Below, one piece after another: positions 15,126-47,951 of a DNA stretch of 64,000 nucleotides (position 1 is the stretch's first letter; each line of letters starts with the position of its first letter). Location of the stretch: assembly GCA_001662655.1 (NCBI GenBank), contig KV460236.1. One strand, written 5' to 3'. The position numbers were made by a program, and so were the translations under genes. Below the pieces are notes generated by a model that did no database searches, was not told the DNA's origin, and saw only the letters and a list, made by a program, of their open reading frames with translations. The DNA is from Pseudogymnoascus verrucosus. Taxonomy: Eukaryota.

Positions 15126-16261
15126 TCATGGTGGACTCTCCACTACAGCGGCTTCTAAAACAGCAAACTTGTTCCTCGTGGAATCTAAGCTCGCCAATGC
15201 ATTCAAAGGAATCGTGAGGATAGGATCTGTGTGACCGATATCAACATTAAACAGGATAGGAAAGTCTGTGCCGTGACACTGGTCCAAGATCATCTGCTTG
15301 AACCCCTTCTTCTGTTCCTCGTCGTACTTGAAAGGTCTACCAACGACCAATCCACTGATTTGCTTGAAAATCCCCAAGTTGACGAGGTCGGCCATTAGTG
15401 AGCGAGTCTGCTCGTACGGCAGGGGGCCGTTGGGGGTCTCTCCTTCAGGGTTCTCGAGGATGAGGATCCGACCTTGGTAAGAGGGGAAATACTTTGTCCC
15501 CGCAAGCTGCAGAATAGAGGGAAGACATCCGCCGAAGAGGCGGCCTGTAGCTTGGCCTGGTCGGAGCCACTCCCAACCCGTGGATGGGGTCCTAAGATCT
15601 CAAATTAGCTAAACCCCGATGGAATGGCATGAGGAAAGACGGTGACTTAACACCGAAGTTATACATACATATGTCTGGGCCGCAGCTCATCGTCTCCATT
15701 ACCCCAGTCACGAAACTCCTCCGTCCACTCAATCGAGCGGGGCAGAACACCAACTGGCTCTCCTACACTCTGAAGCACCTTAAAAAAGTGGTTTAGTGTA
15801 AAATCGAGCGGCTTAGGAAATTCCCCAAACTGCGTGATGGCAGCAGGGCCATAGAACGTCTGCAGCCCCGTCTGGGTAAAGATAGCATGGTGGAGCAGCG
15901 TGATGTCCGAATATCCGCAGAAAATCTTTGGGTTCTTTTTAATAAGGTCATAGTCCAGATGCGGGAGGAGCTCATTGGCAGAGGGGCCACCGATGGTGCA
16001 GATTATGGCTTTGACCTCTGGGTCGCGGAATGCGGAATGGATCTCGTTGCAGCGGTGGAGAACTGTCTCGTGGAAGGTCAAGGGCATTGGGTCGGAGAAG
16101 AATATCTTGATGCGGTACCCTAGGCTTTCTAGGAATGTCTGCGCGCGAGAAACCCGCGAGGGGAAGACGTGGTTTAGTCGGCTGGAGGGTGATATGAAGG
16201 CGATTATATCTCGTGGCTCTAGGGCTTGGGGTAATAATCTAATGGCATTGAGAGCGGCCAT
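15126..16261 (-). CDS. Peptidase family S66 (LD-carboxypeptidase / microcin C7 immunity MccF-like); intron 15592-15668
   Basis: Motifs IAFISPSS, KAIICTIGG, KIFCGYSDIT (catalytic Ser), GRLFGGCL, ILILE (Glu) and DIGHTDP (His). The Ser-His-Glu triad appears intact after splicing. Confidence 0.92.
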
Positions 16262-16556
16262 CCCTAATTTAAAAGGGGGTATTAGATTCTGTAGTAGTCG
16301 GTGATTATCAGAGACTACCGAGGTCAAAATGATAGAAGGGGGAGAGCATTGATTTTAGACGTAGCACACAAATTAAAAAGTCATCCACGAGGTTACAGCC
16401 GCGCCCCGCTAAATTCTGCAGCCTCAGCAAGTGGCTTTATTCTATAAATATCATTACTACTACCCAGCACAGTTTTTATAAAAAGCTCCGATACTCGTGC
16501 AAACACATATCCATAAGTGTAGTATTCTAATTGCCATAGATTATTTACCCTATGAA

Positions 16557-16569
16557 CGGGGGATTGCCG
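16557..16569. promoter_or_regulatory. Candidate Zn2Cys6 site CGG-N7-CCG, ~295 bp upstream of the S66 gene
   Basis: CGGGGGATTGCCG; same spacing and similar spacer as the sites upstream of phacA and fahA. It also lies in the 3' flank of the regulator gene. Confidence 0.4.
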
Positions 16570-16655
16570 CCCAACCGCCTTCCGGCCTGGTATCTGGTAT
16601 TTAACGAAGTTTTTCCATTTTGCCCTTCCATCCTATTTAAATTCGCCTGCGGTAA

Positions 16656-19138
16656 TTAAAATAGATCTCTCAGCTGTCTGTAGAGCTCATCCTCGCCCCC
16701 AAAAGCGTTTGCTCCCCCCGCCATCCCAACCATATTCTCTCCACTACTAACCCCCCCATCATCCATCTGACTAGGCCCAGGATATCCGCCATGAAGACCC
16801 GTCCCCGCCCCCAGCGCTGCCTCGAAAAGATTCGTCATTTCGTGACTCATTTGAAACCCATTGATAGGGCTATTCTCAACCGCAGACACCGAGTGTCCGT
16901 TTCCTCCATTACTCCCCCCTCGGCCATCCTGGCCCATAAACCCATGCATACCAGAGATCTCATGGCCAGCCAATCCGGCCATCGCTAGCGCGGCGCTAGA
17001 ATGGGGATCGTCTAGCGACCCTCCTCTGGCGACAGGTGCTTGTTCCTGCTCCAGTCCTAGTTTTGGGCCTACTTCTTTGAGACCCTTTATGGTGCGCCAG
17101 AGGCGCTTGGAGACGTATGATTTTGAGCTGAAGCCGCGAACGAGCTCGAGTGCCATGTAGAATTCATCCTTGCAGACGGCGCTGAACTGCACAGGGGCAT
17201 GGCAGGAGGCGAGGAAGATGACGGCTAGTGCGGAGATGAGAAAGTAGTTGAAGCACTGTTGTTGTGCGCGGTAGATATCCGTCGTTTGGTTTAGGTGGGT
17301 AAGGGCGCGAATGCTATCTTTCGCCAATTCAACAACCGTCTGCGCGTATGACAGGTTCTCCATTATCGAGTTTGCCGAGTGCAGGACGGGGCGATAGATC
17401 AGGATGCGCATCTGGTTGCAACGTACGTATAGGAGGACCTGCAGGCGATGCATTGCGCGGCTTACAGATTGCGGTGAACCGTTTGTGGGGAGTTGCAGCT
17501 CAGGAGGGATGGCCTTCTGCCACTGCAAAATCTGGTAGTCGAGGTAGCCGATGTCTTCCTTCTTGATATCTGTCGGGGCAAGGCTGTCGAAACCTGCCAC
17601 GGAGCGCCAGACACGCGACCCAATACGGGAATATGATATCATGACACTGAGATAAGGGATCTTGACTTCCTGCGATGTTGTTAGGAGAGCAGCAGAGTGA
17701 GGGAGAGGACAGAAACTCACGGGCCCAGGTAAGCTTGGGTCAATATCCGCATCTTGCATAGCGAATGGCATGCCTGTACCAAAACTCCATCGCCGATCGA
17801 GGCAGTAGATTGACCAGAACAGCCTGACGGCATTTGCACGGCCTTCTTCATCTGGGAAATTCTTGAACAAAGAGTCTCGACGATGCAGCCCAAGCTCAAC
17901 ACACATTCTGGAGGCCTGTCCAATTACACGCCAGGCAAGAGCTCTAGTAATCAATTAGTAACGTGGACACGAGAAGCGGCGGGACTAACATACTCTTCAT
18001 CACAGTGGAAGTGATAAGTTGCCACAAGCACTACCAAGGGTATATCCTTAATTGAAACCCCCTCAGTATGGATAATATTATCTGAAGCACGTTTTGTGTT
18101 CTCATACAGCCGATTGGCAAACTCGCTCTGGCCTGAGCATTCAACGGCAGACGCTATACTCAGGACCATCTTCAAAATGTTCAAATCTTGCTCTGCGACA
18201 GGACTCGGCGACTCGGTATTGGGGTTCTGCCCATTCTTCGGAGAACCTTCTTCCATAAACCGATATTGGGCATTAGCGACTTGCGCAACCCAGTTCATGT
18301 CCAAGAATGGATACATGATGCATATTTCATCTTCGTACACCACGCATAGCCGTAGTGCCTCCTCTTTTGTTATCGACCACAGCGGATCTTTAAACGGATG
18401 CGATGGCAAAACGGCCTGTCTCATTGGCGGCGATCCTGCAGGTGTATCGTCCTGCATCCCATTCCCATCTTCTCCGCCTTCTAGACCCGGGTATCCCATA
18501 TTTTGTAGAGTGTTCTTTGCGACATCAAAACTGAATGCGGAGCTTGTCGGTCCTTGGAATCGGGGATGTTTGGGAGGAGGAGGGCGATAGGTTAAAGCCG
18601 GGCTTGTACTCTGTATGCTCCTCTGGCTCATCGACCCTGTCATCGACCCCTTATTGGGGCCGATATCTCCGCTGCGCAACGCATTGAGGTTCGCGTATAG
18701 GTTATCGATCTGTTCCTGCAGACTCGAGAGATGCGCATTCATCTGTTTGAACTCCTCCGAGTCCTTGAACCCATTCGCGCAGCAGTTAGGCGCATACTGG
18801 CATTCGAGGTTGAGGTTCCCGCACCGTTGGCAAGGTGAGTTTCCATTGCATTTGATTTTGCGGCGCTTGCATTCGTTGCTGTCAGATCTGTCAGTCGGGA
18901 GTTCCGCATTCAGCCCTTGCATTCCACAGCATTTCGAATTGCAAGGTAATCAAAATTAGACCCAGTGCGCCACGGAATAGGCGCGCGATAAGGTGTGGTC
19001 TTACCATGCGATTGAAATATAGCGATTCCGTTTTGCTCTAGGTTGCCCACCATTCTGGGGTCCAAGGTCGTCGCTTTTCCGCTTTCCTTGGTCCCGCGCT
19101 GGGCTTTCCGCACTGTCAGTGCCCCGTCGATCTGCCAT
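16656..19138 (-). CDS. Zn(II)2Cys6 transcription factor with fungal-specific TF domain; introns 18879-19004, 17944-17993, 17670-17720
   Basis: Spliced zinc cluster ACNECKRRKIKCNGNSPCQRCGNLNLEC; middle homology region ELGLHRR...FWSIYCLDRRWSFGTGMP. Confidence 0.93.
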
Positions 19139-19742
19139 GGCGTAACCAGCGACGAGGGGGAGCGGGAGGGGAGAGTCGACTAGGCTCGACAGGTCGCTGA
19201 CTTGGGTCTCGAGAATATTTTGCATGCTCACGAGCGCATCATGGGTGATTGAGGCGTCGGACAGACAAATGGTGTTGTTTGGAGACGGGAACCCGAGCGG
19301 GACCTTTGGCCCGAAGAAAGGCGGAGGAGTGTTGGGATCTACACCTGGGGGTGGGACTAAAATACTGGGGTAGCTTGGCGCAAAAGAAATTATAGGCCCA
19401 TTATAAAAACCGCATTAACAACCAGTTCAAAGTTGTCAGCCTCGAATTAATACAAAGACTGAATTGAATGTATGAATATTTGCGCGTAGAGTATGCGAAG
19501 ACAACATAAAGACCTCAGATTAAGATAATTTTTGCTTATTCAACCCATAACAGTAACGGTCTATTTACATTTAACTGCACACCCAGGGTATAAGTATTTG
19601 AGCCTACTGTGAAAAGGAGTGTCGAGGCCGTGACTCGACATGAAATTCCCTCAACACTGTAACTGCAAATCTTCTGGAAACGTTGCCACCGAACGGGCAG
19701 TTTGGAAAACATCCCCCCAACTCCTTTATCATGCCCCAATCA

Positions 19743-21422
19743 TCAGGTAGACAAGTGTCTCGTCTTATCTTCGCTCTCTTGGATCCACTGCTTGAGTGAT
19801 TCTGAGTCCCTGGCGCGGAAACCACACTTAAATGGCTTTGGTTCAGTTGTCAGAGACGTTGGAATAGCGTTGCATCCCAACGCATCCAGGATAGGAAGAT
19901 CCTCTGGCTTCTGAGCCGGATCAATGTGGAAAGCCATTATCATGCGGACAAACGCGACGTATAATTCGCGGTTGGCAAGGTGCGAGCCAGCGCACATACG
20001 AGATCCAGCACCGTAGGCAAAGTGAGGAGTGCCACCGGAACCCTCCAGATTGTCGAGATAGCGCTCAACGGAGAATTCCTGGGGACTCTTGAAATGAGTC
20101 GCATCATAGTCTGCGGCCCATGCGTTCATGTAGAAGGTTGTTCCGGCAGGGATGACTGCATTTTCGTACTTGATGTCCTTGATGCTCGTTCGTGGCAGGC
20201 AGATGGGAATGACGATGAAGAAGCGAAGCACCTCACGAACGAAGGCGGTGACATAGGATACCTTCTCCTCCAAAATACACTTCTCCCAGGCATCTCCATC
20301 GGGGTATACTTTCATAATTTCGTCGTAGGCACGTTTTTGGATTTCTTGGCCGTGAGGTGACGAGAGGTATGCGATTCCCATAATCAAGTTCCCTGGCACG
20401 GTATCGAGACCTGCAGAGACCATGGTAAGACAGATTGACTTGATCTCGTCTGTGCTAAGCTTCGCTTCCGGGTCTTTGAGAATCTGTCATCGTAATGTTA
20501 GTAATATTCCAAACGTTTCGTGGTTGGTGGTTCTAAACTTACGTTGCCAGTAATGCAAGGCTTATCAACTCCTCTTTCGATCTCGCCCTTGAGCCTAGCC
20601 AGTAAAAAGCTCAAGTACTTGTCTCTGCGCTCTCTGTACTCTTTCGGTCCCTTGCTGCTGCTTGGCCACAACCTCATAAGCGGAATGTAGTCCTGCCAGT
20701 TGTTGCTAGTACTTCTGAAGTTGCTCACGACTCTCTCAACGTGACAAATCTCTTGCAGCAGTTCATCGTCGATTTTCCCGTCAATTCTTGAGCCATAGTT
20801 GAGTGTCAAACTTGTGTTCAGGGCAAATCTCTGGAAGTATGCAATGGGATCAATATCGACAGTGCCGTCCTTGGAATCCTGGAAGATTTCTTTGATGGAT
20901 ACGTTGCATTCGAGGTCAAGAATTGGCATGTAGGATTGGACAGCTGGGCGGTTTAGAGCAGTGGCAGCAGCCTTGCGACGGTTTTTGCATGACTCGTCCC
21001 ACGGGGATGTCCCGACAGTGAAACCTTGCGAGGAGGAGACGACCGTGTGAAAGGTGTGAAGAGTAGGGCGGGAGATGAGAGCCGACTGGTTCGTGATCCA
21101 GAGGTGGCGAACAGAATCGAAGGTATTGGCAAATACAATTCTCTGAAGCAGGTTAGATTCCAACACATGGAATTGAGAGTTCAACGGAGAACACTAAACG
21201 TACCCTGTTGCCTAGGCGGACTTGGAACACCGGGCCATATGTCTTCGAGTAATTGTATGCCGCTGTAGCATGATCGCTGCCGAATTTAAGGAGAGAACCA
21301 AACAGAGGAAGTCCAGGAACCTCAGGTAGGTTCTTAATTTTGGGCGTGTCGGTGTGGTTCAAGTATTTAACAAATAAATATATCACAGCGGCAATCGCAA
21401 TGCCGACAACTTGGTAACCCAT
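19743..21422 (-). CDS. phacA: Cytochrome P450 phenylacetate 2-hydroxylase (CYP504A-like); introns 21143-21203, 20484-20542
   Basis: CYP504 signature QSALISRPTLHTFHTVVSSSQGFTVGTSPWDESCK, I-helix SAGLDT, EVLR, and heme motif FAYGAGSRMCAG. Confidence 0.9.
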
Positions 21423-21589
21423 TTTGGAGGAGATCTTCGCAGGCGGTAGATACAAAAAAAGATGCAAGTAAAAGCTCCAGAGCTGCTGTCGCCTTCTTAT
21501 ATAACAATACGAGGGGAAAACGACCGTATATATTTATGCCTTGAATTGGTTGGAGTTACCGATGCTAAATTGGTTTCTGGGGAAGTAGG

Positions 21590-21602
21590 CGGGGATATTC
21601 CG
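21590..21602. promoter_or_regulatory. Candidate Zn2Cys6 site CGG-N7-CCG, ~170 bp upstream of phacA; overlaps a CreA-type GCGGGG
   Basis: CGGGGATATTCCG (reverse complement CGGAATATCCCCG). Further GCGGGG sites at 21811, 21854 and 21865. Confidence 0.5.
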
Positions 21603-21992
21603 CGGGCGCTTCTATGGCCCAGTGTATTTCAATCTCACTAGATCCTCGTTCACTCAAAGCTTCAATAGACATGAATCTCGAATTACCGAGAGACATCCGG
21701 CATTTATATGCCACGTTGGTGAGCTGTCGACGCTTCAACGTGCATTTAGGAGCAGGTTCCGCGTTTGGATGACGGTGGGCACGGAATAGGTGCGCTACAT
21801 ATTCCCAAATGCGGGGTACTAATTTTCAGCGGAGTGCCGTACCTTACGAACGTGCGGGGAGAATGCGGGGCCTTCAGTTTCGGAGTTCATCACAGCAAAC
21901 AAGTCCGCGAAAAACAATTGAGGCATTAGTAATGGAATTTATTTGATTTTTAGCCCTAAACTATACGAGGCACGAGATATCTAGTTGCTGAC

Positions 21993-23394
21993 TTATTGTT
22001 GGAGAGGTGGGGCAGGCAGGATGGTGCCCACGCATTCTCCAAATCCTACAAGCTGGCCATTCTCAACCCCGCACGCCCCACGAATAGTAACAGTGTCACC
22101 ATCGACGAGGAATTTGCGAACTTCTCCGTTGGAAAGCTTGACCTCCTCTTTACCAGCACGGTTGATCTCGAGTAAAGACCCCAGAGTATCGCGCTCAGTA
22201 CCAGAAATGGTACCAGACCCAAGGAGATCACCAGTGTTCATTGGGCAGCCACCGACGGTGTGGTGGGCAAGCATCTGGGGGAACGACCAGAGGAGGTTTG
22301 CTGCTGTGGTCTTGGAGATAGTTGTGTTCGTTCCGTCCGATGCTTCAATATGTTAGCCAATGCCATAAATGTAGAAACCGGGATATTCTTACTGGTTAGG
22401 TCAACCTCAAGCTTAATATCGTACGCACGATTTGCTTGTGGGTCCTTCAGATATGCGGTCAACTCGGTAGAGTTCTCCAGAGCCTTTGTTCTGAAAGGCT
22501 CCAGGGCATCCATGAGGACGACCCAAGGGGAGATCGATGTGCCGAAGTTCTTGGCATTGAATGGTCCCAGTGGGACATACTCCCACGTTTGAATATCTCT
22601 TGCAGACCAATCGTTCATAAGGACAAGACCGAAGAGGTTATCTTCCGCTGTGCCAACTGGTATCGGCTCGCCCTGCTTGTTTGGCGTGCACACAAACGCA
22701 GCAAGCTCCAGCTCAATATCTAGCCTCTTGCATGCGGTATAGGTCGGTTCGTCAGGCTTGGATGGATCAAGGATAACTTGGCCGTTAGGTCTGCGAATTG
22801 GTGTTCCGGAGACCACAACAGACGATGCACGCCCATGGTATCCAACTGGGAGATGAGTATAGTTCTTTTGGAGGGCGTTGGCTGGACCGCGGAACATAGT
22901 TCCAACCTAGAACTTTGTTAGAGAGCTTCAAACCTTCATATTTAGAAGTTTCTTACGTTGAATGCATGGTTAATGCCGGCGAAAAAGTCGGTATAGTCGC
23001 CAATTTGCATTGGCAAGTGAAGCTTGGCCTTGCTCCTGGGAACTAGAGCCTCCTTCTTGAGCTCCTCGTTGTCCTTGAGAACCTTTGATGAAGCGCTACC
23101 TTCCGAAAACACGTCTTGGAGGTATTCACGAACTTGCTTGTGTACTGGGCGACCAAGCGCTGCGAATGAGTTCAGGGTTGGCTCTCCAAACACGGACAGC
23201 TTGTCTTGGATGGAAGGAAGCCCAGAGAATCCGCCATTCTTTGCGAAACACTGCAGATCCAGCGCGTAGTCACCAATTGCAACTGCTGACCTCTTCTGCT
23301 CTTGTCCCTCTGTGCTGATGATCCCGAAAGGGATATTTGCTATGGAGAAGTGAGAATCCGCTGGGATCTCCAGCCAGCTCTTTGATGCGACCAT
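21993..23394 (-). CDS. fahA: Fumarylacetoacetase; introns 22907-22956, 22343-22392
   Basis: Motifs SHFSIANIPFG, IGDYTDFF, HLPVGYHGRASS, LDIELE, LMNDWSARDIQ.WEYVPLGPF and GDLLGSGTISG. Confidence 0.95.
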
Positions 23395-23579
23395 TTTGAA
23401 GATGTTTTTGAGTCCTTTAGTTGCCACGATTGTTTATACGCAAAGAAGACAATGGACAAGAGAATAGATGAAGATTATTTGCAGAAATCACAAAAGAGGA
23501 GTATGCAGGAGAGCTTACATTTGTTCAATATATCGGGCGGGTATAGAAGGGACAACAAATAATGCGGCATGACCCCGCT

Positions 23580-23592
23580 CGGAATTCCTCCG
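23580..23592. promoter_or_regulatory. Candidate Zn2Cys6 site CGG-N7-CCG, ~185 bp upstream of fahA
   Basis: CGGAATTCCTCCG, 10/13 identical to the reverse complement of the phacA site. Flanked by CCCCGC (CreA-type) at 23573 and 23611. Confidence 0.5.
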
Positions 23593-23991
23593 CGGTAATC
23601 GGACCAGCTGCCCCGCATACGTCACTTGTGTGCGGTACGGACCCCTGGATCCTGATTGGCTAGCATCCTCAGCTTCAAAAAACCTTAATTGTTGCGTCTT
23701 GTTGTTTTTGGAGAAACGATTAAAATAACGAAGCCGATAACCGGAGATGGAGACCCCAATTATGGAAACAGAAGGCTCTATTTTTGCGTGACGTTTGACA
23801 CAGCTTGGTGGCGATTGCCAGACTGCCTCAAAAGCAATTCACGGGCAAGATACGGTGCAATTGGAGAAAATTGTTTGCTAGGAAACGTGCATTTCAAAGA
23901 CCTGGCGGAGTAGAAAAGACCGCACCGGCCCACTTGGGCAGGGTCCTAGATCACCTCCAAATATCCTGGAGCGAATGAGCTCAACGGAACA

Positions 23992-25418
23992 ATGCACTAC
24001 ATTCGTTTCCTCAAGCCTCCGCAGATAACCCGGGATGCCAAAGTACCTGACCACCACATACTTTATGCCAAGATAACCGTCGTCAACGACTTGGGAGAAA
24101 GCTTCTTATGGTGCGATATACCCATCGAGGCTACCATTCGGGACAGCAATGGCGTGACCGTCGCCACGCAAAGCCTTGTGTGGAAGTGCGAGAAGAGACA
24201 GCTGGAAGTGAGGCTAGCATTGAGCGAAAAGAAGGCAAGAAAGGAAAAATATAAGCCACCTTATCAACTCAGCGTGTGGCCTTCCACAGGAGACTTCACG
24301 CCTTATAACTTGGCAAAGGTGCTCAGCATAAACAGAGGGCAGACTAATCGACCAGCGGATGGCGCCGTTTTACGCGGGTTGAGCGCCACCTTCAAGGCCA
24401 CGGCGGAATCCATTCGTCCTGTAATTTACAGGCACTTCAAATTGAATGGCGGGGTCACTATGAGTATTGACGAGGATACAGGGGAAAGTATTGCGAGGCA
24501 TATATGGTACGTTTTTTTCCTACTTTCTATCATGTCGCCCTCAATATACAGAGAATCAGGCGAGTGCCGTATCAAAGCTACTCAAAATGGCCCTACCATG
24601 AATACACGCGGAAGCTATCATAATACTCTTTATATTTTCATATGAGCATTCCTTCATCCCAACCACCATCTGTACGTTTTGAGGGTCCCGTGCCTCAAAA
24701 CTCAAACCTCAGCTCTATCTCCTTCCTGCATATTACGTTCCATCTACTGAATTTCTTAAATTTGGCTCCAGTTACATATATATATTTTCTATTTCTAACA
24801 CTACATAGGGACGCTGGTGTCATCCTCTCAGCCCTCCTCGAGGAGCTAAGCCTGCCTTCCAGCACCCCCCCACCGGGTCTCCGATTACTGGGCGACCTGA
24901 TCAAAACCGTACCACAACCCTCTGTCCTTGAACTGGGTACTGGTTGCGGAATCGTCGCCATCACATTTGCACTCTCCGTCCCAGATTCTCGCATAATTGC
25001 CACCGATCTGGAGGAAGCCGCCGAAGTCGCATCTGATAATCTCGAGCAAGCCACCAACACGTCTTACATGAACCTCGATTGGTCAGAGCCACTACCACTG
25101 AGAGTTGCGCATGAGAACTTTGACTTGATCCTGGTGGCGGACTGCACATACAACCCAGACGTGGTCCCCTATCTCGTCTCAACGCTAGCCAAGTTGATCA
25201 AGAAATCACCATCGGTGTTGATATGCCTGGCCATGAAAGTGCGCCATGCCAGCGAGGCGGTATTCTTCGACCTCATGAAGGAGCACGGCATTGTGCAGGT
25301 TGGTAAACACAGTGAGAGGGTGGGGAACTTGGGCGACGAAGACGAATCCGTCGATATTTATTTGTTTAAGGGTGCAGAGGCGGCGAAGGTCTTAAAACGC
25401 GTGTCTGGTTTGGTTTAA
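23992..25418 (+). CDS. Family-16 (METTL21-like) SAM-dependent protein methyltransferase; intron 24507-24808
   Basis: MHYIRFLKPP start, spliced GESIARHIWDAG, motif I VLELGTGCG, and DLILVADCTYN (DxxY). Confidence 0.9.
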
Positions 25419-41643: not shown

Positions 41644-44600
41644 TTAAGTAATAGAAGAAAGCAGCTTCACTACTCCCTCATGCCCATTCTCTGCAGCCAA
41701 CGAGAGTGGCGTCCCGCCACCGCTATCTGTAGTCTCTAGCTTAGNNNNNNNNNNNNNNNNNNNNNNNNNNNNNNNNNNNNNNNNNNNNNNNNNNNNNNNN
41801 NNNNNNNNNNNNNNNNNNNNNNNNNNNNNNNNNNNNNNNNNNNNNNNNNNNNNNNNNNNNNNNNNNNNNNNNNNNNNNNNNNNNNNNNNNNNNNNNNNNN
41901 NNNNNNNNNNNNNTTAGCGCCCTTGTCAAGCAGCAGCTTCACCACTCCCTCATGCCCATTCCCTGCGGCCCACGAGAGTGGCGTCCGGCCACTGCTGTCT
42001 TCAGTCTCTAGCTTAGCGCCCTTGTCAAGCAGTAGCTTCACCACTCCCTCATGCCCATTCCCTGCGGCCCACGAGAGTGGCGTCCGGCCACTGCTGTCTT
42101 CAGTCTCTAGCTTAGCGCCCTTGTCAAGCAGCAGCTTCACCACTCCCTCATGCCCATTCCCTGCGGCCCACGAGAGTGGCGTCTGGCCACTGCTGTCTTC
42201 AGTCTCTAGGTTAGCGCCCTTGTCAAGCAGCAGCTTCACCACTCCCTCATGCCCATTCCCTGCGGCTGACGAGAGTGGCGTCCGGCCATGGCTGTCTTTT
42301 GAGTCGATGTTGACTATGTCGGAGTTAAGTAGCGACTTGACGATGGCCTTGTGCCCGTCCCGCGCGGCTAGTAACAGCGGCGTCCGGCCCTCTTCATCTA
42401 TTTCATTCGTGTTTACTACATTGCCTTTGAAGAGCCTACGCAGTAGGTCGTACATAAGTGACTCTTGCTCCGAAATGCAAAAGAGGTGCTGCAGCCAATA
42501 TGCCTTTGCATATGAATGAAAGTGGAACTCATCCGCTAATTGAGGACTGACAAGCTTGCTTGTTTCCGCAAGAGTCTTTTCAATGTTGAAGTTAGGTTGC
42601 TTCCTAGACTTCAAAAGCTTTAATGCAAGACTTTGAACACTGCTTGGTACGTCTAGTGTTGAACGAACGATTTGGGATGGCGCTGATGCGGTCATTATTT
42701 GCTGGACTACCCTAGTAGATAGCTGGGTTCCAAAAACGCCATAATTGAGGTAGGTGACAATAATGTTTGCTATTGTTCTGTTTGCGCTATCAATTGTGAT
42801 TCCTATGTTAGCTGAGTCTTTAAACCCGCTAAAGAGAAATTGCTTAACGCTATGGTGCACGAGTCGTATGGTCTTCTCCTCTTCATCGATAGTAAGGAGG
42901 CTTCCGCAGCAAGTTAATGTTGAATGTATGTCATTAAGACGCCTTGAGGGGTTCCAAACAGCGTCGCCAGGGACAACGCTTAAGGCATCTCGAAGTGCTT
43001 CTGCTGTTAAGGGACGGCAAGCTATAGTTATAAGCTCTAATATCCGTCTCTGATACGGCTTTCCATATTGTTCTGATTTCCGTAGAATACGAAAAAATGT
43101 TTCTGAGAGATCCTTGGGAAGATCCGCTAGAGCCTGGCGAATAGCATCATCTGTTTTCATGTTGCATAAGGACTCGATTTGTAGAGCTACCCAGAGAAAC
43201 ATTCCCTGGGATCCTTTAATGAGGGCGTCTTGGATTTCTAGTATAAGCATAGGATTTCCTATCACTAGCCTTTTAGACTCTATGCGACTCTCTAATTCTG
43301 CTAAGATGAATGCGTCAATATCAGGGTTATCATCTGGAATTGATGTAACCTGGGCGTTAATGAACTGCTCTAGGCTCAATTTCAAAACGTTGCTAGGATC
43401 GAGTCGGACTGATACACATACAAGTAGTGAAAATGTCTTCTGAAACTTCCAGAGCTGTTTGATTAATATGTCTCTTTCAGCTGGGTCACATTCATCCAGC
43501 CCGTCAAGGACGAAGTACGCTCTTGACGTAGGTGGAAGAGAGTGTTGGAGTAAGCTGAAAATCTCTTCGAAATCCAGAGCAAGATCAGTAGTGGTCTTAT
43601 CAATGAATCTCGCTACTATCGCGAGATCTGCTATTAGGCGCAACAATTGTCGGGCTAGAGAACCAATGACTGTCCGCGCTTTCAAACTTTCTAGAATGTC
43701 GTGCCGGCAAAAGAAGTAAGCAACCGTAACATTCTTACTTCGACAGTTAAGATTTAGATCATCAATTAGGTTAGCTAGCAGAACGGATTTTCCGGATCCT
43801 AGCCCGCCCGTACATATTAGTGTACAGGAAGATTTTTGACCTTTCCAGTCCTTATATGCGACAATTTGGTTGAGTAGAGTTGTGTTTCCGATCTTTCGCG
43901 TCTGCTTCCATGTCGTCTCATAATCATATATAGAGCAGGAATCGAGGACCCGTACGTTTGTCTTTAGCTTTTGCCGAAGCGATACAGATTCAGAAAACTT
44001 GCTAGAAAAAGCTCTGAATTTAGAGTTATCTTGGGCTTCCTCCTTAATCATTTTTGTCGTTAGCAGGGTCGCCTCCTCTTTAATCTCATTCGCCCAGCGG
44101 TCGAGATCAGATTGGTATGTTTTCATGTCTGAATCACTTAGAGTAGATGCAAATTGCGCTAAGGCGGACTTCTGTGTAAACTTTAACGATTGATGGCAAA
44201 GATGAACCACCACAATGAAATATTCGTGCAGGTAGGACTGCATTTTCTTAGAGCGCGGATATAGCAATGCCATCATCTGGTAACGAGGGGCCGAGCGACC
44301 AGCGGTCATAAGGAGTTCTGATAACTTTTCCAGATAGGAAGTGAAGTTTGCAATTGACTACGAAGATTTTAGTACAAGATGCAGCTAAAGATGTCAAGGG
44401 TTACTGACAAGCAATGACATTCGCACCAACGACCAGACACCGCAAGCGATTAGATTCTGTGACCCGCCTATTATAACATCACCAAGCGCAGCGAATTGCT
44501 GAACGCCGTGCAGAAAACTGATCAGCCGAGGCGCAAAACAACGTCTGCAACCAATCTTTCTAGTAGCGTCTCCAATTTCAGCTATGAGTTGGTCAACATC

Positions 44601-45117: not shown

Positions 45118-46733
45118 CACCCCGGATCGTTTATCTATGAAAATTGAGCGAAAATCATCAACAATCAGTAGTTGGCGATGAGGGACCTGCAGACTAGCAA
45201 AATTGATTGGCATACAGAATCTCGCCATGTGGGCTGCAACCTTCTGGCGCCTCCCGGGCAATCAATGGTGCTGTGACTGTGAGACAAATGACGTGTTGGC
45301 CGCTGAAGACCTAATACTTTCTCAGTCAAAGTGCAGTTCACAATATACTTCATTGCGATGCCCTAACATCACAGGAACTGTTGATATCAGGATAAAATAA
45401 CATAAATGTTCAAGCATCCTCTATGGCATATTGCACGCCCAGCAGTGTCGGCCACCTCGCAGGTGGTGAGTTTCTTGTAAACATACCATGAGTAAAATCA
45501 TGCCGGGAGGGAGCAAGATTCGGGGCTATGGTGTGGAATATAAAGTGCTGTAGTGTAGGTACCGCACGGATATGATTAACATACAATTGTTATAACGTTG
45601 ATGTGACTGAGGCATAATGAGACAATTGGCGCAATTATAGTAACCGCATTAGGACACTAGGTTCAAAAAATGCAGGGGGAAGCCAGTTTTGCAAGCGACT
45701 GTACATGCATCATGTTGTTTTGAGTGCTGCTTTTTGGATATTTATCACTGCGGGTGGATGGCGCTGTCCACCAAGGTGATACAATGTGCTGTTAGAGCTG
45801 CTTCAGCAGACTGAGCTGGTAGTTGCGGTTGGAGCGCTAGAAATGACTCCTTGATGCAGCTATAGTCGACCTAAGGTCAGAAACTTGGAATGATATTTTT
45901 AGTGATGATCTCAAGTCTAATAAGTGGCTCCCGGAACGTCTAAAACGGTCCCCCTAGTGTAATGTTTTAAACGTAGCAAACGGCTCCTCGAAATCAATAC
46001 TCGGCTCCAAGGTTGAATACTTGAGCTGGACAGCTATTGCGTTCGTTTATGGCTTGAGAAGCGGCCGGAATTCTGCGCTCTCCGTCTGTTCGCAGTTCAG
46101 TGATGGTGTTACGGTGGCATAAAACAGCACCGGAAGCTGCTGGATTCAGCAGCCCAAACACCACCACTTAGACTAAACTTGTAAACTCTATACGAGGGGT
46201 CTTTTGTTATCTGGAAGATATATATTTGAGATATTTTCCTTTCCTAATTTTATTTATTTTAAATGCCAATATATATTCTTACTTATGTTATGGTAACACA
46301 CATTCATTAATTTTGGTCGCACGGAGAATATATTAACGAACTCCAGTATCTAACTGCCGACCTATATGTATATTATGCCACTAAAGTAAACTATCGGCCT
46401 CTCTATAATTCACGTTAAAATTGTATGGGTCTCATTATAAGATAGAATCCGCACCATTTTATATACCCCGCTACTCGGGGTAAATGGCCCCGGCAAGTGA
46501 CCCCGGCCCGCCATTGCGGTCGCGGTTAAGTTCCGCATTCGGTATTCTCCCCACTTATCCAGGGATATTTTGGAAAGGCGGAGTAAATATGGGGGATTCA
46601 TCCAGGTTACCCCACACGAGCAGCGATATAAAAGGGTAATGAGGGAAAAGTAGCTATCTGTAATATGCAACATATATCTGCAGCCAACAATTCTGTAACA
46701 ATCCTACCAGGCCTCCCAGTCCATTGAACAAGC

Positions 46734-47951
46734 ATGTCTCCCAATCACCCTCCAAACCCGCAGTCAAAACCCCCCTTGCAATCTATAATCAGCTGTCACG
46801 ACTTCGAGCATGCAGCTTCAATCTCGCTAGCCCCGAAGACATGGTCCTTCTACTCATGCGCCGCCACGGATCTGGTAACCCACAAGCTGAATAGCAGCAT
46901 ATACAACCAGATCCTCTTTCGCCCCCGCACAATGACCGATGTCTCCACCGCCGACACGTCAACCTCCATCCTCAGCCGCCGCTCCACTCTTCCGCTCTTT
47001 TGCGCCCCTGCCGCTCTCTCAGCAATGGTGCATCCCGACGGGGAACGGGCCCTCGCGCGCGCGTGCCAGAAATCCGGCATCCCGCAATGCGTCAGCACCA
47101 GCGCGTCGTTCCGGGTAGAAGACATCTTCGCGTCGATTTCCCAGCCGCCAGTGCTGGATACGCCGCCGCCTGCTCCAATGACGTTTTTCTTCCAGCTGTA
47201 TGTTGATAAGAATCGCGCGAAGTCGGAGGAGTTGCTGAGGACCGCGGAGAGGCTGGGGGCGAAGGCGGTGTTTGTCACGGTGGATGGGCCGGTGCAGGGG
47301 AAGAGGGAGGCGGATGAGAGAGTAAAGGCGGACAGGGAGTTGGTGTCGCCGATGAGTGGGACGAGGGCGAAGAATGATGAGAAGAAGGGGAATAGTATTT
47401 CGAGGGCGATGGGGTCGTATATTGATCCCACGCTGAGTTGGAAGGATGTGGAGTGGCTGAGGAGGAGTACGAAGTTGCCGATTATTTTGAAGGGGATTAT
47501 GACGGCGCAGGATGCGGTGCTGGCGATGGAGCATGGGATTGATGGAATTGTGCTTAGCAACCATGGTGGTAGGAATCTCGACACGACCCCGCCTCCGATG
47601 TTGGTTCTGTTGGAGATTCAGAAGAATAGCCCAGAGGTCTTGGACAAGGTGGAAGTGTTTGTTGATGGGGGTATCAAGCGAGGAACAGATATCTTTAAAG
47701 CATTGTGCCTTGGAGCAAAGGCTGTCGGTATTGGACGGGGCTTTCTTTGGGCACTTAATTATGGAGAGGAGGGCGTGGAGAAGTTCATTGATATCTTGAG
47801 GGATGAGCTCGAGACTACGATGAAGCTTTGTGGGATTACGGATCTGAGCCAGGTTCATCCGGGTCTGGTGAACACGCTCGCTATTGACCATTTGGTACCT
47901 AGTGGCGAGGGGCATCCGTATGCGAAGTGGAGGCCGAAGGCTAGGATATAG
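46734..47951 (+). CDS. FMN-dependent alpha-hydroxy acid dehydrogenase (flavocytochrome b2 / mandelate dehydrogenase-like) without a cytochrome b5 domain
   Basis: Motifs FFFQLY, VTVDGPVQGKRE, ILKGI, SNHGGRNLD and DGGIKRGTDIFKALCLGA; intronless. Confidence 0.92.
   Translation: MSPNHPPNPQSKPPLQSIISCHDFEHAASISLAPKTWSFYSCAATDLVTHKLNSSIYNQILFRPRTMTDVSTADTSTSILSRRSTLPLFCAPAALSAMVHPDGERALARACQKSGIPQCVSTSASFRVEDIFASISQPPVLDTPPPAPMTFFFQLYVDKNRAKSEELLRTAERLGAKAVFVTVDGPVQGKREADERVKADRELVSPMSGTRAKNDEKKGNSISRAMGSYIDPTLSWKDVEWLRRSTKLPIILKGIMTAQDAVLAMEHGIDGIVLSNHGGRNLDTTPPPMLVLLEIQKNSPEVLDKVEVFVDGGIKRGTDIFKALCLGAKAVGIGRGFLWALNYGEEGVEKFIDILRDELETTMKLCGITDLSQVHPGLVNTLAIDHLVPSGEGHPYAKWRPKARI

Follow-up and report, generated by a model that had tools for sequence, protein, structure and literature searches.

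Besides its part in the metabolism of phenylacetate, phenylalanine and tyrosine, the homogentisate pathway makes pyomelanin, and the loss of phenylacetate through it is a known drain in penicillin production. In Aspergillus fumigatus, HmgR is required for the transcription of hppD, hmgA, fahA and maiA (PMC3203155), and the sites of Aro80 are direct CCG-N7-CCG repeats (PMC7947893). A predicted HmgR site is mentioned in PMC4374905, the main text of which does not give it. Harris et al. (2009) report no motif that met their criteria for seven phenylacetate genes, and on the regulator they offer no more than speculation (PMC2657799). In the following we discuss a stretch of 64,000 nucleotides from Pseudogymnoascus verrucosus (contig KV460236.1 of assembly GCA_001662655.1; G000:C31:124001-188000 in our numbering of the 30.2-Mb host genome), hereafter the window, in which genes of this pathway carry an inverted CGG element upstream, together with the regulon that this element may mark and the protein that may read it.

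The minus strand of the window carries a head-to-tail row of four genes: fahA, phacA, the gene of a Zn2Cys6/Fungal_trans factor, and a peptidase S66 gene. The starts of the three enzyme genes were confirmed by comparison with full-length relatives (phacA ATG at 21422, fahA ATG at 23394, S66 ATG at 16261). Contigs from four of the 24 listed public runs were compared with the cluster, one run giving no cover; spliced contigs of a close relative, from one run, confirm the introns of fahA and of the factor gene, and a joint is visible in phacA. An earlier note on the window had reported a CGG-N7-CCG 13-mer before each enzyme gene and proposed it as the binding site of the embedded factor. All three 13-mers are present where the note placed them, and the promoter distances are as it gave them (168 bp before the ATG of phacA, 186 bp for fahA and 296 bp for S66). 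The spacers, described there as similar, are so at phacA and fahA (both CGGAAT); the S66 copy (CGGCAAT) breaks a conserved position. The features are as follows, with scores from an ortholog matrix that was built solely from other fungi.

21993-23394, minus strand: fahA, fumarylacetoacetase (Pfam PF09298 and PF01557), with spliced contigs from the close relative.
19743-21422, minus strand: phacA, phenylacetate 2-hydroxylase (P450).
16656-19225, minus strand: transcription factor with Zn2Cys6 (PF00172) and Fungal_trans (PF04082) domains, the candidate binder.
15126-16261, minus strand: peptidase S66 (LD-carboxypeptidase family), a lineage-specific neighbour probably outside the regulon.
21590-21602, minus strand: CGGAA-N5-CCG element of the phacA promoter, score 16.9, conserved in orthologous promoters.
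23580-23592, plus strand: CGGAA-N5-CCG element of the fahA promoter, score 16.8, with counterparts in 21 of 25 orthologous fahA promoters.
23565-23577, plus strand: second, weaker CGG-N7-CCG at fahA, in tandem, score 12.6, overlooked in the earlier note.
21748-21761, minus strand: putative degenerate copy of the N8 type, with the final base missing, 339 bp upstream of the phacA ATG.
16557-16569, minus strand: CGG-N7-CCG without the CGGAA half, between the factor gene and S66, score 11.4, probably not a member site.

The best explanation of the whole, which we consider somewhat probable, is that CGGAA-N5/6-CCG serves many filamentous ascomycetes as the upstream activating element of their homogentisate regulon. 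That the element is functional we hold, from sequence comparison, to be highly probable; with CreA-like boxes on its flanks, it is a predicted mark of the homogentisate (phenylacetate/Phe/Tyr) regulon.

The orthologous promoters carry this reading. An alignment of 40 PhacA sequences was used to retrieve loci, and the best 80 of 163 metagenome loci were taken, many of them on short contigs; by best PhacA match they fall into Leotiomycetes, Dothideomycetes, lichen-type lineages and Eurotiomycetes. fahA is present in 39 of these 80 phacA loci, the factor family in eight and S66 in none. Promoters of at least 300 bp were kept, up to 700 bp each (67 phacA and 38 fahA), of which 46 and 25 remained once near-duplicates had been dropped. 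Bare CGG-N7-CCG is found in 25 of the 46 phacA and 18 of the 25 fahA promoters, compared with 1-13 and 0-7 promoters for the other spacings between 0 and 20, N8 being the second highest. The 43 distinct N7 sites yield the consensus gCGGAAtnnnnCCGc, and CGGAA stands in one orientation in 39 of them. CGGAA-N5-CCG occurs in 24/46 phacA and 17/25 fahA promoters, where 200 shuffles gave means of 0.7 and 0.4 and maxima of 3 and 2; the form longer by one base (N6) occurs in 8/46 and 6/25, and either form in 30/46 and 21/25 (shuffles, 1.3 and 0.8), or in 42 of 62 promoters with nine shared divergent promoters counted once. Conservation above chance, on which the earlier note had let its proposal depend, is thus found for both phacA and fahA. 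The refined element consists of inverted CGG triplets with a spacer of 7, sometimes 8: N7 forms the peak and N8 a minor one, the remaining spacings and geometries lie at background, and direct-repeat geometries on the CGGAA half show no enrichment. Around unrelated Zn-cluster genes the background was one element in 93 kb. The ortholog loci share descent and therefore are not fully independent trials.

Gene order adds to this picture. In nine Helotiales-like loci (L001, L003, L005, L008, L032, L058, L063, L072 and L073) fahA and phacA diverge from a short common promoter, which in most cases holds one element for both genes, whereas in the window they stand in tandem with a copy each, which suggests that the site was kept through rearrangement. 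The second fahA site lies 2 bp from the main one; L002 and L052, the closest two relatives, also have a further site at fahA, at a distance of 13-17 bp from the first. The degenerate copy before phacA lies at the distance typical of most ortholog sites. Base-level footprinting was not feasible, the three closest promoters being too diverged in a MAFFT alignment.

Within the window itself the pattern had been called suggestive, its spacing having been chosen after looking, and dinucleotide shuffles lead to the same judgement. An inverted N7 pair common to all three upstream regions arose in 0.03% of 3000 shuffles; some inverted spacing between 0 and 20 was shared in 0.7% of them, and some CGG/CCG geometry of whatever kind in 8.4%. 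Over the whole window, bare CGG-N7-CCG shows no enrichment (12 copies against 14.4 expected), and the refined element matches there three times, at phacA, at fahA and at 46523-46535. The phacA and fahA sites are, by the ortholog data, clearly non-random; the window alone is only suggestive.

Elsewhere in the genome, the earlier note had foreseen hits at hmgA, maiA and phacB. The element is present at three of the four unlinked pathway genes: maiA (at -240, score 17.5) and a phacB-like P450 (two perfect CGGAA-N4-TTCCG copies, at -387 and -229), as foreseen, and in addition hppD (at -416, score 17.0); the prediction failed at hmgA, which has half-sites only. With 603 N5 sites in the genome, the chance of a site is 0.014 per 700-bp promoter, and that of two or more among four such genes 0.001. 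The P450, 44% identical to PhacA, is termed phacB-like by analogy with the 42% identity of PhacB and PahA (PMC2657799). The host genome has the perfect N8 palindrome at 16 places, the two at this gene included. One of the others stands some 345 bp upstream of a 4-coumarate-CoA-ligase-like gene (L186/L202, G000:C5:21294), and the aryl-CoA ligases of P. chrysogenum are phenylacetate-induced (PMC2657799). Another lies about 100 bp before a gene of the FAA-hydrolase family (L195, G000:C28:310628) with a divergent MFS transporter gene opposite, in a cluster that has Zn-cluster genes of its own; at the remaining 12 of the other 14 palindromes no aromatic link was seen. In the Eurotiales-like locus L080 an element stands upstream of an AMP-binding gene divergent from phacA.

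The region of hmgA gave further observations. Directly upstream of it lies a Dabb gene (PF07876; L091:7042-7428) with a strong element at -316 (L091:6726, G000:C85:69225). The regions of two divergent hmgA paralogs (L094 and L095; G000:C24 and C18) hold no promoter element in about 10 kb each, their sole match being in coding DNA, and both paralogs sit in clusters with P450 and SDR genes.

CreA-like SYGGRG boxes accompany the element. One (21589-21594) overlaps the weak half of the phacA site, and two (23573-23578 and 23611-23616) flank the fahA site. Among the orthologs, 18 of 30 phacA and 15 of 21 fahA promoters with the element have SYGGRG no more than 30 bp away from it, against 6.0 and 4.1 expected (divergent promoters being counted in both sets); most ortholog sites themselves contain no SYGGRG. 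CreA may bind at these boxes and compete with the activator. The boxes likewise stand near the activator element at the Gtf1p/Otf1p promoters (PMC8929692).

Several findings weigh against the reading of the element as that of the whole regulon. Sixteen of the 46 phacA promoters are without it, among them those of the close relative L002 (PhacA 86%) and of L080 (80%), which have none within 700 bp; several of the element-less promoters belong to distant PhacA proteins (53-63% identity). The few Sordariomycetes loci in the set had no element either. hmgA, a core pathway gene, has five half-sites and no paired element in the host genome, and the four stand-alone hmgA promoters of other fungi are all without it. 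There is no genome-wide excess (108 against 102; 603 against 900; for the extended motif, 44 against a control of 50), and most genome-wide matches lie in coding or unrelated DNA (the neighbours of 39 extended hits were inspected). The Eurotiomycetes ortholog of the window factor is unlinked from phacA by locus tag; and hppD is tyrosine-specific and HmgR-dependent in A. fumigatus (PMC3203155), an Aro80/HmgR-like gene being present here. The absence of over-representation is as expected for a small regulon; with matches mostly irrelevant, scanning alone is unable to define that regulon.

The lack of a genome-wide excess, the chance level of the bare pattern in the window and the overlap of the phacA site with a SYGGRG box might also be taken to mean that the sites arose by chance or as a side effect of GC-rich CreA boxes. 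We find this scarcely credible, since the spacing-specific and AA-specific enrichment among orthologs lies far beyond every shuffle, the sites at unlinked pathway genes were predicted beforehand, and most ortholog sites have no SYGGRG. For the phacA and fahA sites the explanation by chance is largely refuted by the ortholog enrichment and the unlinked pathway-gene sites.

As to the protein that reads the element, the cluster-encoded factor is the likeliest candidate, because its near-invariant DNA-binding domain matches the range of the element, it has a dimer helix, and it is repeatedly linked to phacA; we regard it as the probable binder on these grounds. In the window protein, which has Zn_clus and Fungal_trans domains, the DNA-binding domain is followed by a dimer helix of the heptad type (a pattern read from the alignment), as in dimers that recognise inverted sites; the two together take up about residues 60-150. 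The DNA-binding domain with its linker is nearly invariant across four classes. The nearest solved structures to the Zn2Cys6 domain and dimer helix are Put3, Hap1 and Gal4. The factor adjoins phacA in six of the 80 loci and paralogs of it do so in two more, and the link to phacA appears by locus tag in five further named genera. The family stands beside phacA in Leotiomycetes and, through the paralogs, in L067 and L018, both with an element near -105. The L067 paralog has an identity of 44% in the aligned columns and groups with none of the ortholog clades; a quick tree places both phacA-linked paralogs on long branches. In A. fumigatus the best match of the window factor is XP_752205, on a 3.92-Mb contig, and not the chromosome-2 cluster gene. 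The protein Atlas gave no name for the cluster factor or for the Aro80/HmgR-like factor. The factor gene carries no element upstream of itself, in the window or in any of the seven loci examined (7/7), so that autoregulation is not indicated there.

In the mechanism that we propose, a Zn2Cys6 homodimer, most likely of the cluster factor, would bind both CGG halves of the inverted pair, a strong CGGAA half and a loose partner, would tolerate one extra base in the spacer, and would switch the genes on when the aromatic inducer is present; CreA at overlapping or adjacent SYGGRG boxes would impose glucose repression. An activator of the Gal4 kind acting on inverted CGG sites is an ordinary type of mechanism.

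The closest paralog of the factor in the host genome is a pseudogene with many stops (L124/L104, G000:C16:33448-35665), in a decayed AT-rich cluster with MFS, ADH, monooxygenase and SDR genes; about 400 bp upstream of it, behind two GGAAATTCC repeats, is a strong element.

The element could instead be read by an unlinked tyrosine regulator of the Aro80/HmgR type, the cluster factor doing something else or only assisting. A candidate gene exists in the host genome (G000:C5, about 417000-420200), which we take to be HmgR-like from the Aro80-like signature of its zinc cluster; the known HmgR targets hppD and maiA carry the element here, and it occurs twice before hmgA in the Eurotiales-like locus L079. 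On the other side, the Aro80 repeats are direct and the element is inverted, without any enrichment of direct forms on its CGGAA half. No HmgR-like gene is present in any of the 80 phacA loci, where the other family is found in eight. Moreover, there is a separate direct-repeat motif that would suit HmgR: CCG-N4-WARCCG occurs in seven of the 46 phacA promoters (L015, L034, L036, L037, L042, L046 and L049) against a null of 0.6, though it was chosen after looking, and two of these promoters are without the inverted element. We consider it a candidate Aro80/HmgR-type site. The motif of Neurospora AMN-1 is reportedly a direct repeat. Direct CCG-N7-CCG is absent from the phacA and fahA promoters of the window, and one direct copy fits in the host hppD promoter. 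Reading of the element by an HmgR-type protein seems to us unlikely, though it is the main rival, and two motifs for two regulators make the simplest picture. What probability the cluster factor and HmgR leave goes to another factor or a heterodimer.

The earlier note had placed S66 in the regulon from its site, and this is not supported: the site lacks the CGGAA half that 39 of the 43 ortholog sites have, and synteny of S66 is confined to part of one genus. The site lies 87 bp behind the stop codon of the factor gene, probably within its 3′ untranslated region, and has C where 40 of the 43 oriented ortholog sites have A. No CGGAA-N5/6-CCG occurs in the S66 upstream region (16262-17300). In the orthologs, a non-CGGAA N7 site is the only one in 2 of the 62 independent promoters, about the chance level, and among 67 background N7 sites 14 equal or exceed the score of the S66-side site. 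In all eight factor-bearing loci, with 0.95-12 kb of flank visible, there is neither S66 nor, within 400 bp behind the factor, an N7 pair. S66 and the factor are on different contigs in Pseudogymnoascus V500 and V502, and tags or contigs place S66 away from the cluster in Scytalidium, Trapelia, Cudoniella, Sarea, Xylographa, Hyphodiscus and Mollisia. An LD-carboxypeptidase is not known to have a role in the homogentisate pathway. Among the listed contigs of the four runs compared none spans the site, so that the runs say nothing on its conservation, and the missing cover of S66 in the run with the spliced contigs is no evidence either.

These findings are set against the possibility that the site is a functional one of low affinity and that S66 was recruited into the regulon in this lineage. 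In its favour, and thus counting against our own view, shuffles of the S66 region reach a score of 11.4 or more in only 0.7% of cases and a bare N7 in 5.4%, and 5 of the 43 ortholog sites score as low in a leave-one-out test. At fahA, both in the window and in L052, the tandem partner of the main site is a similar non-CGGAA site, and in at least six Pseudogymnoascus records the locus tags put S66 next to the cluster. The evidence on membership is about neutral, and membership is unsupported; with a likelihood ratio close to one and a low prior, we judge recruitment to be rather improbable. In all likelihood S66 is not a regulon member, and the site would be a chance or weak match in the 3′ flank of the regulator, with S66 as a bystander.

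A better candidate member than S66 lies 25 kb off, in front of a cytochrome-b2-like gene:

46523-46535, minus strand: CGGAA-N5/6-CCG, candidate regulon site, score 15.3.
46737-47951, plus strand: FMN-dependent 2-hydroxy-acid dehydrogenase (like the flavin domain of flavocytochrome b2), candidate regulon member.

The site is about 200 bp upstream of the gene and has CreA-like boxes around it. The dehydrogenase is without the cytochrome domain, and its substrate could be an aromatic 2-hydroxy acid; the 80 phacA loci showed no homolog of it. Elsewhere in the window, a Methyltransf_16 gene (23992-25418, plus strand) is divergent from fahA over the same element-bearing region; it is syntenic in L002 and L052 only and was not counted as a regulon member. 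An assembly gap (a run of N) at 41740-41920 falls at the end of a NACHT-ankyrin gene. In locus L114 (G000:C5:8427) an acetoacetate-CoA-ligase-like open reading frame (identified by eye) is followed, about 185 bp downstream, by a strong element, which is thus on the wrong side for a promoter. Acetoacetate is the product of FahA.

Taken together, a Zn2Cys6 family conserved across filamentous ascomycetes, and distinct from HmgR, may be the phenylacetate-responsive master activator. It would read inverted sites of the CGGAA-N7/8 type at phacA, phacB, fahA, maiA and hppD and at side branches (aryl-CoA-ligase-like, cytochrome-b2-like 2-hydroxy-acid dehydrogenase, Dabb), beside HmgR at separate direct repeats, and would be gated by adjacent CreA boxes. 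We offer this larger proposal tentatively, as an open contender that falls slightly short of being probable. With the element defined and a candidate factor named, the question of the regulator becomes testable, and the element offers a phenylacetate-inducible promoter part. A search limited to the open literature found no report of the element or of the function of the factor, so that the element may already be in print.

Among the known systems, HmgR (AFUA_2G04262 in A. fumigatus; also T. marneffei) and Aro80 resemble the proposed regulator as Zn2Cys6 activators of homogentisate-pathway genes, with hppD, fahA and maiA as common targets. The spacer of 7 is shared with Aro80, the sites of which differ in being direct repeats (PMC7947893), compared with an inverted arrangement and a CGGAA half here. 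The window factor is probably a different protein from HmgR (its best A. fumigatus match being XP_752205), and the predicted targets here include phacA and the phacB-like gene. AN8079 of A. nidulans adjoins phacA, as we presume from its locus number; similarly, in the Penicillium-like locus L067 a paralog of the window factor sits behind phacA. AN8079 and A. fumigatus Afu5g01700 are listed as a Zn2Cys6 gene (PMC10653911). The Gtf1p/Otf1p clusters of Candida parapsilosis are alike in having a cluster-encoded Gal4-type activator and an inverted element at the pathway genes and not at the regulator itself, with SYGGRG boxes near; they differ in serving the gentisate and 3-oxoadipate pathways, and their binding was shown by electrophoretic mobility-shift assay, whereas the binder here is predicted from sequence (PMC8929692). 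Their motifs are GGAN7TCC and GGRN10WCC (PMC8929692), compared with GGA-N5/6-TCC for the palindromic form here. With Gal4, Ppr1 and Put3 the system shares inverted CGG halves and a Zn2Cys6 domain followed by a dimer helix. The spacers of those three are 11, 6 and 10, respectively, whereas the element described here has a spacer of 7 or 8, an asymmetric AA extension and one base of tolerance.

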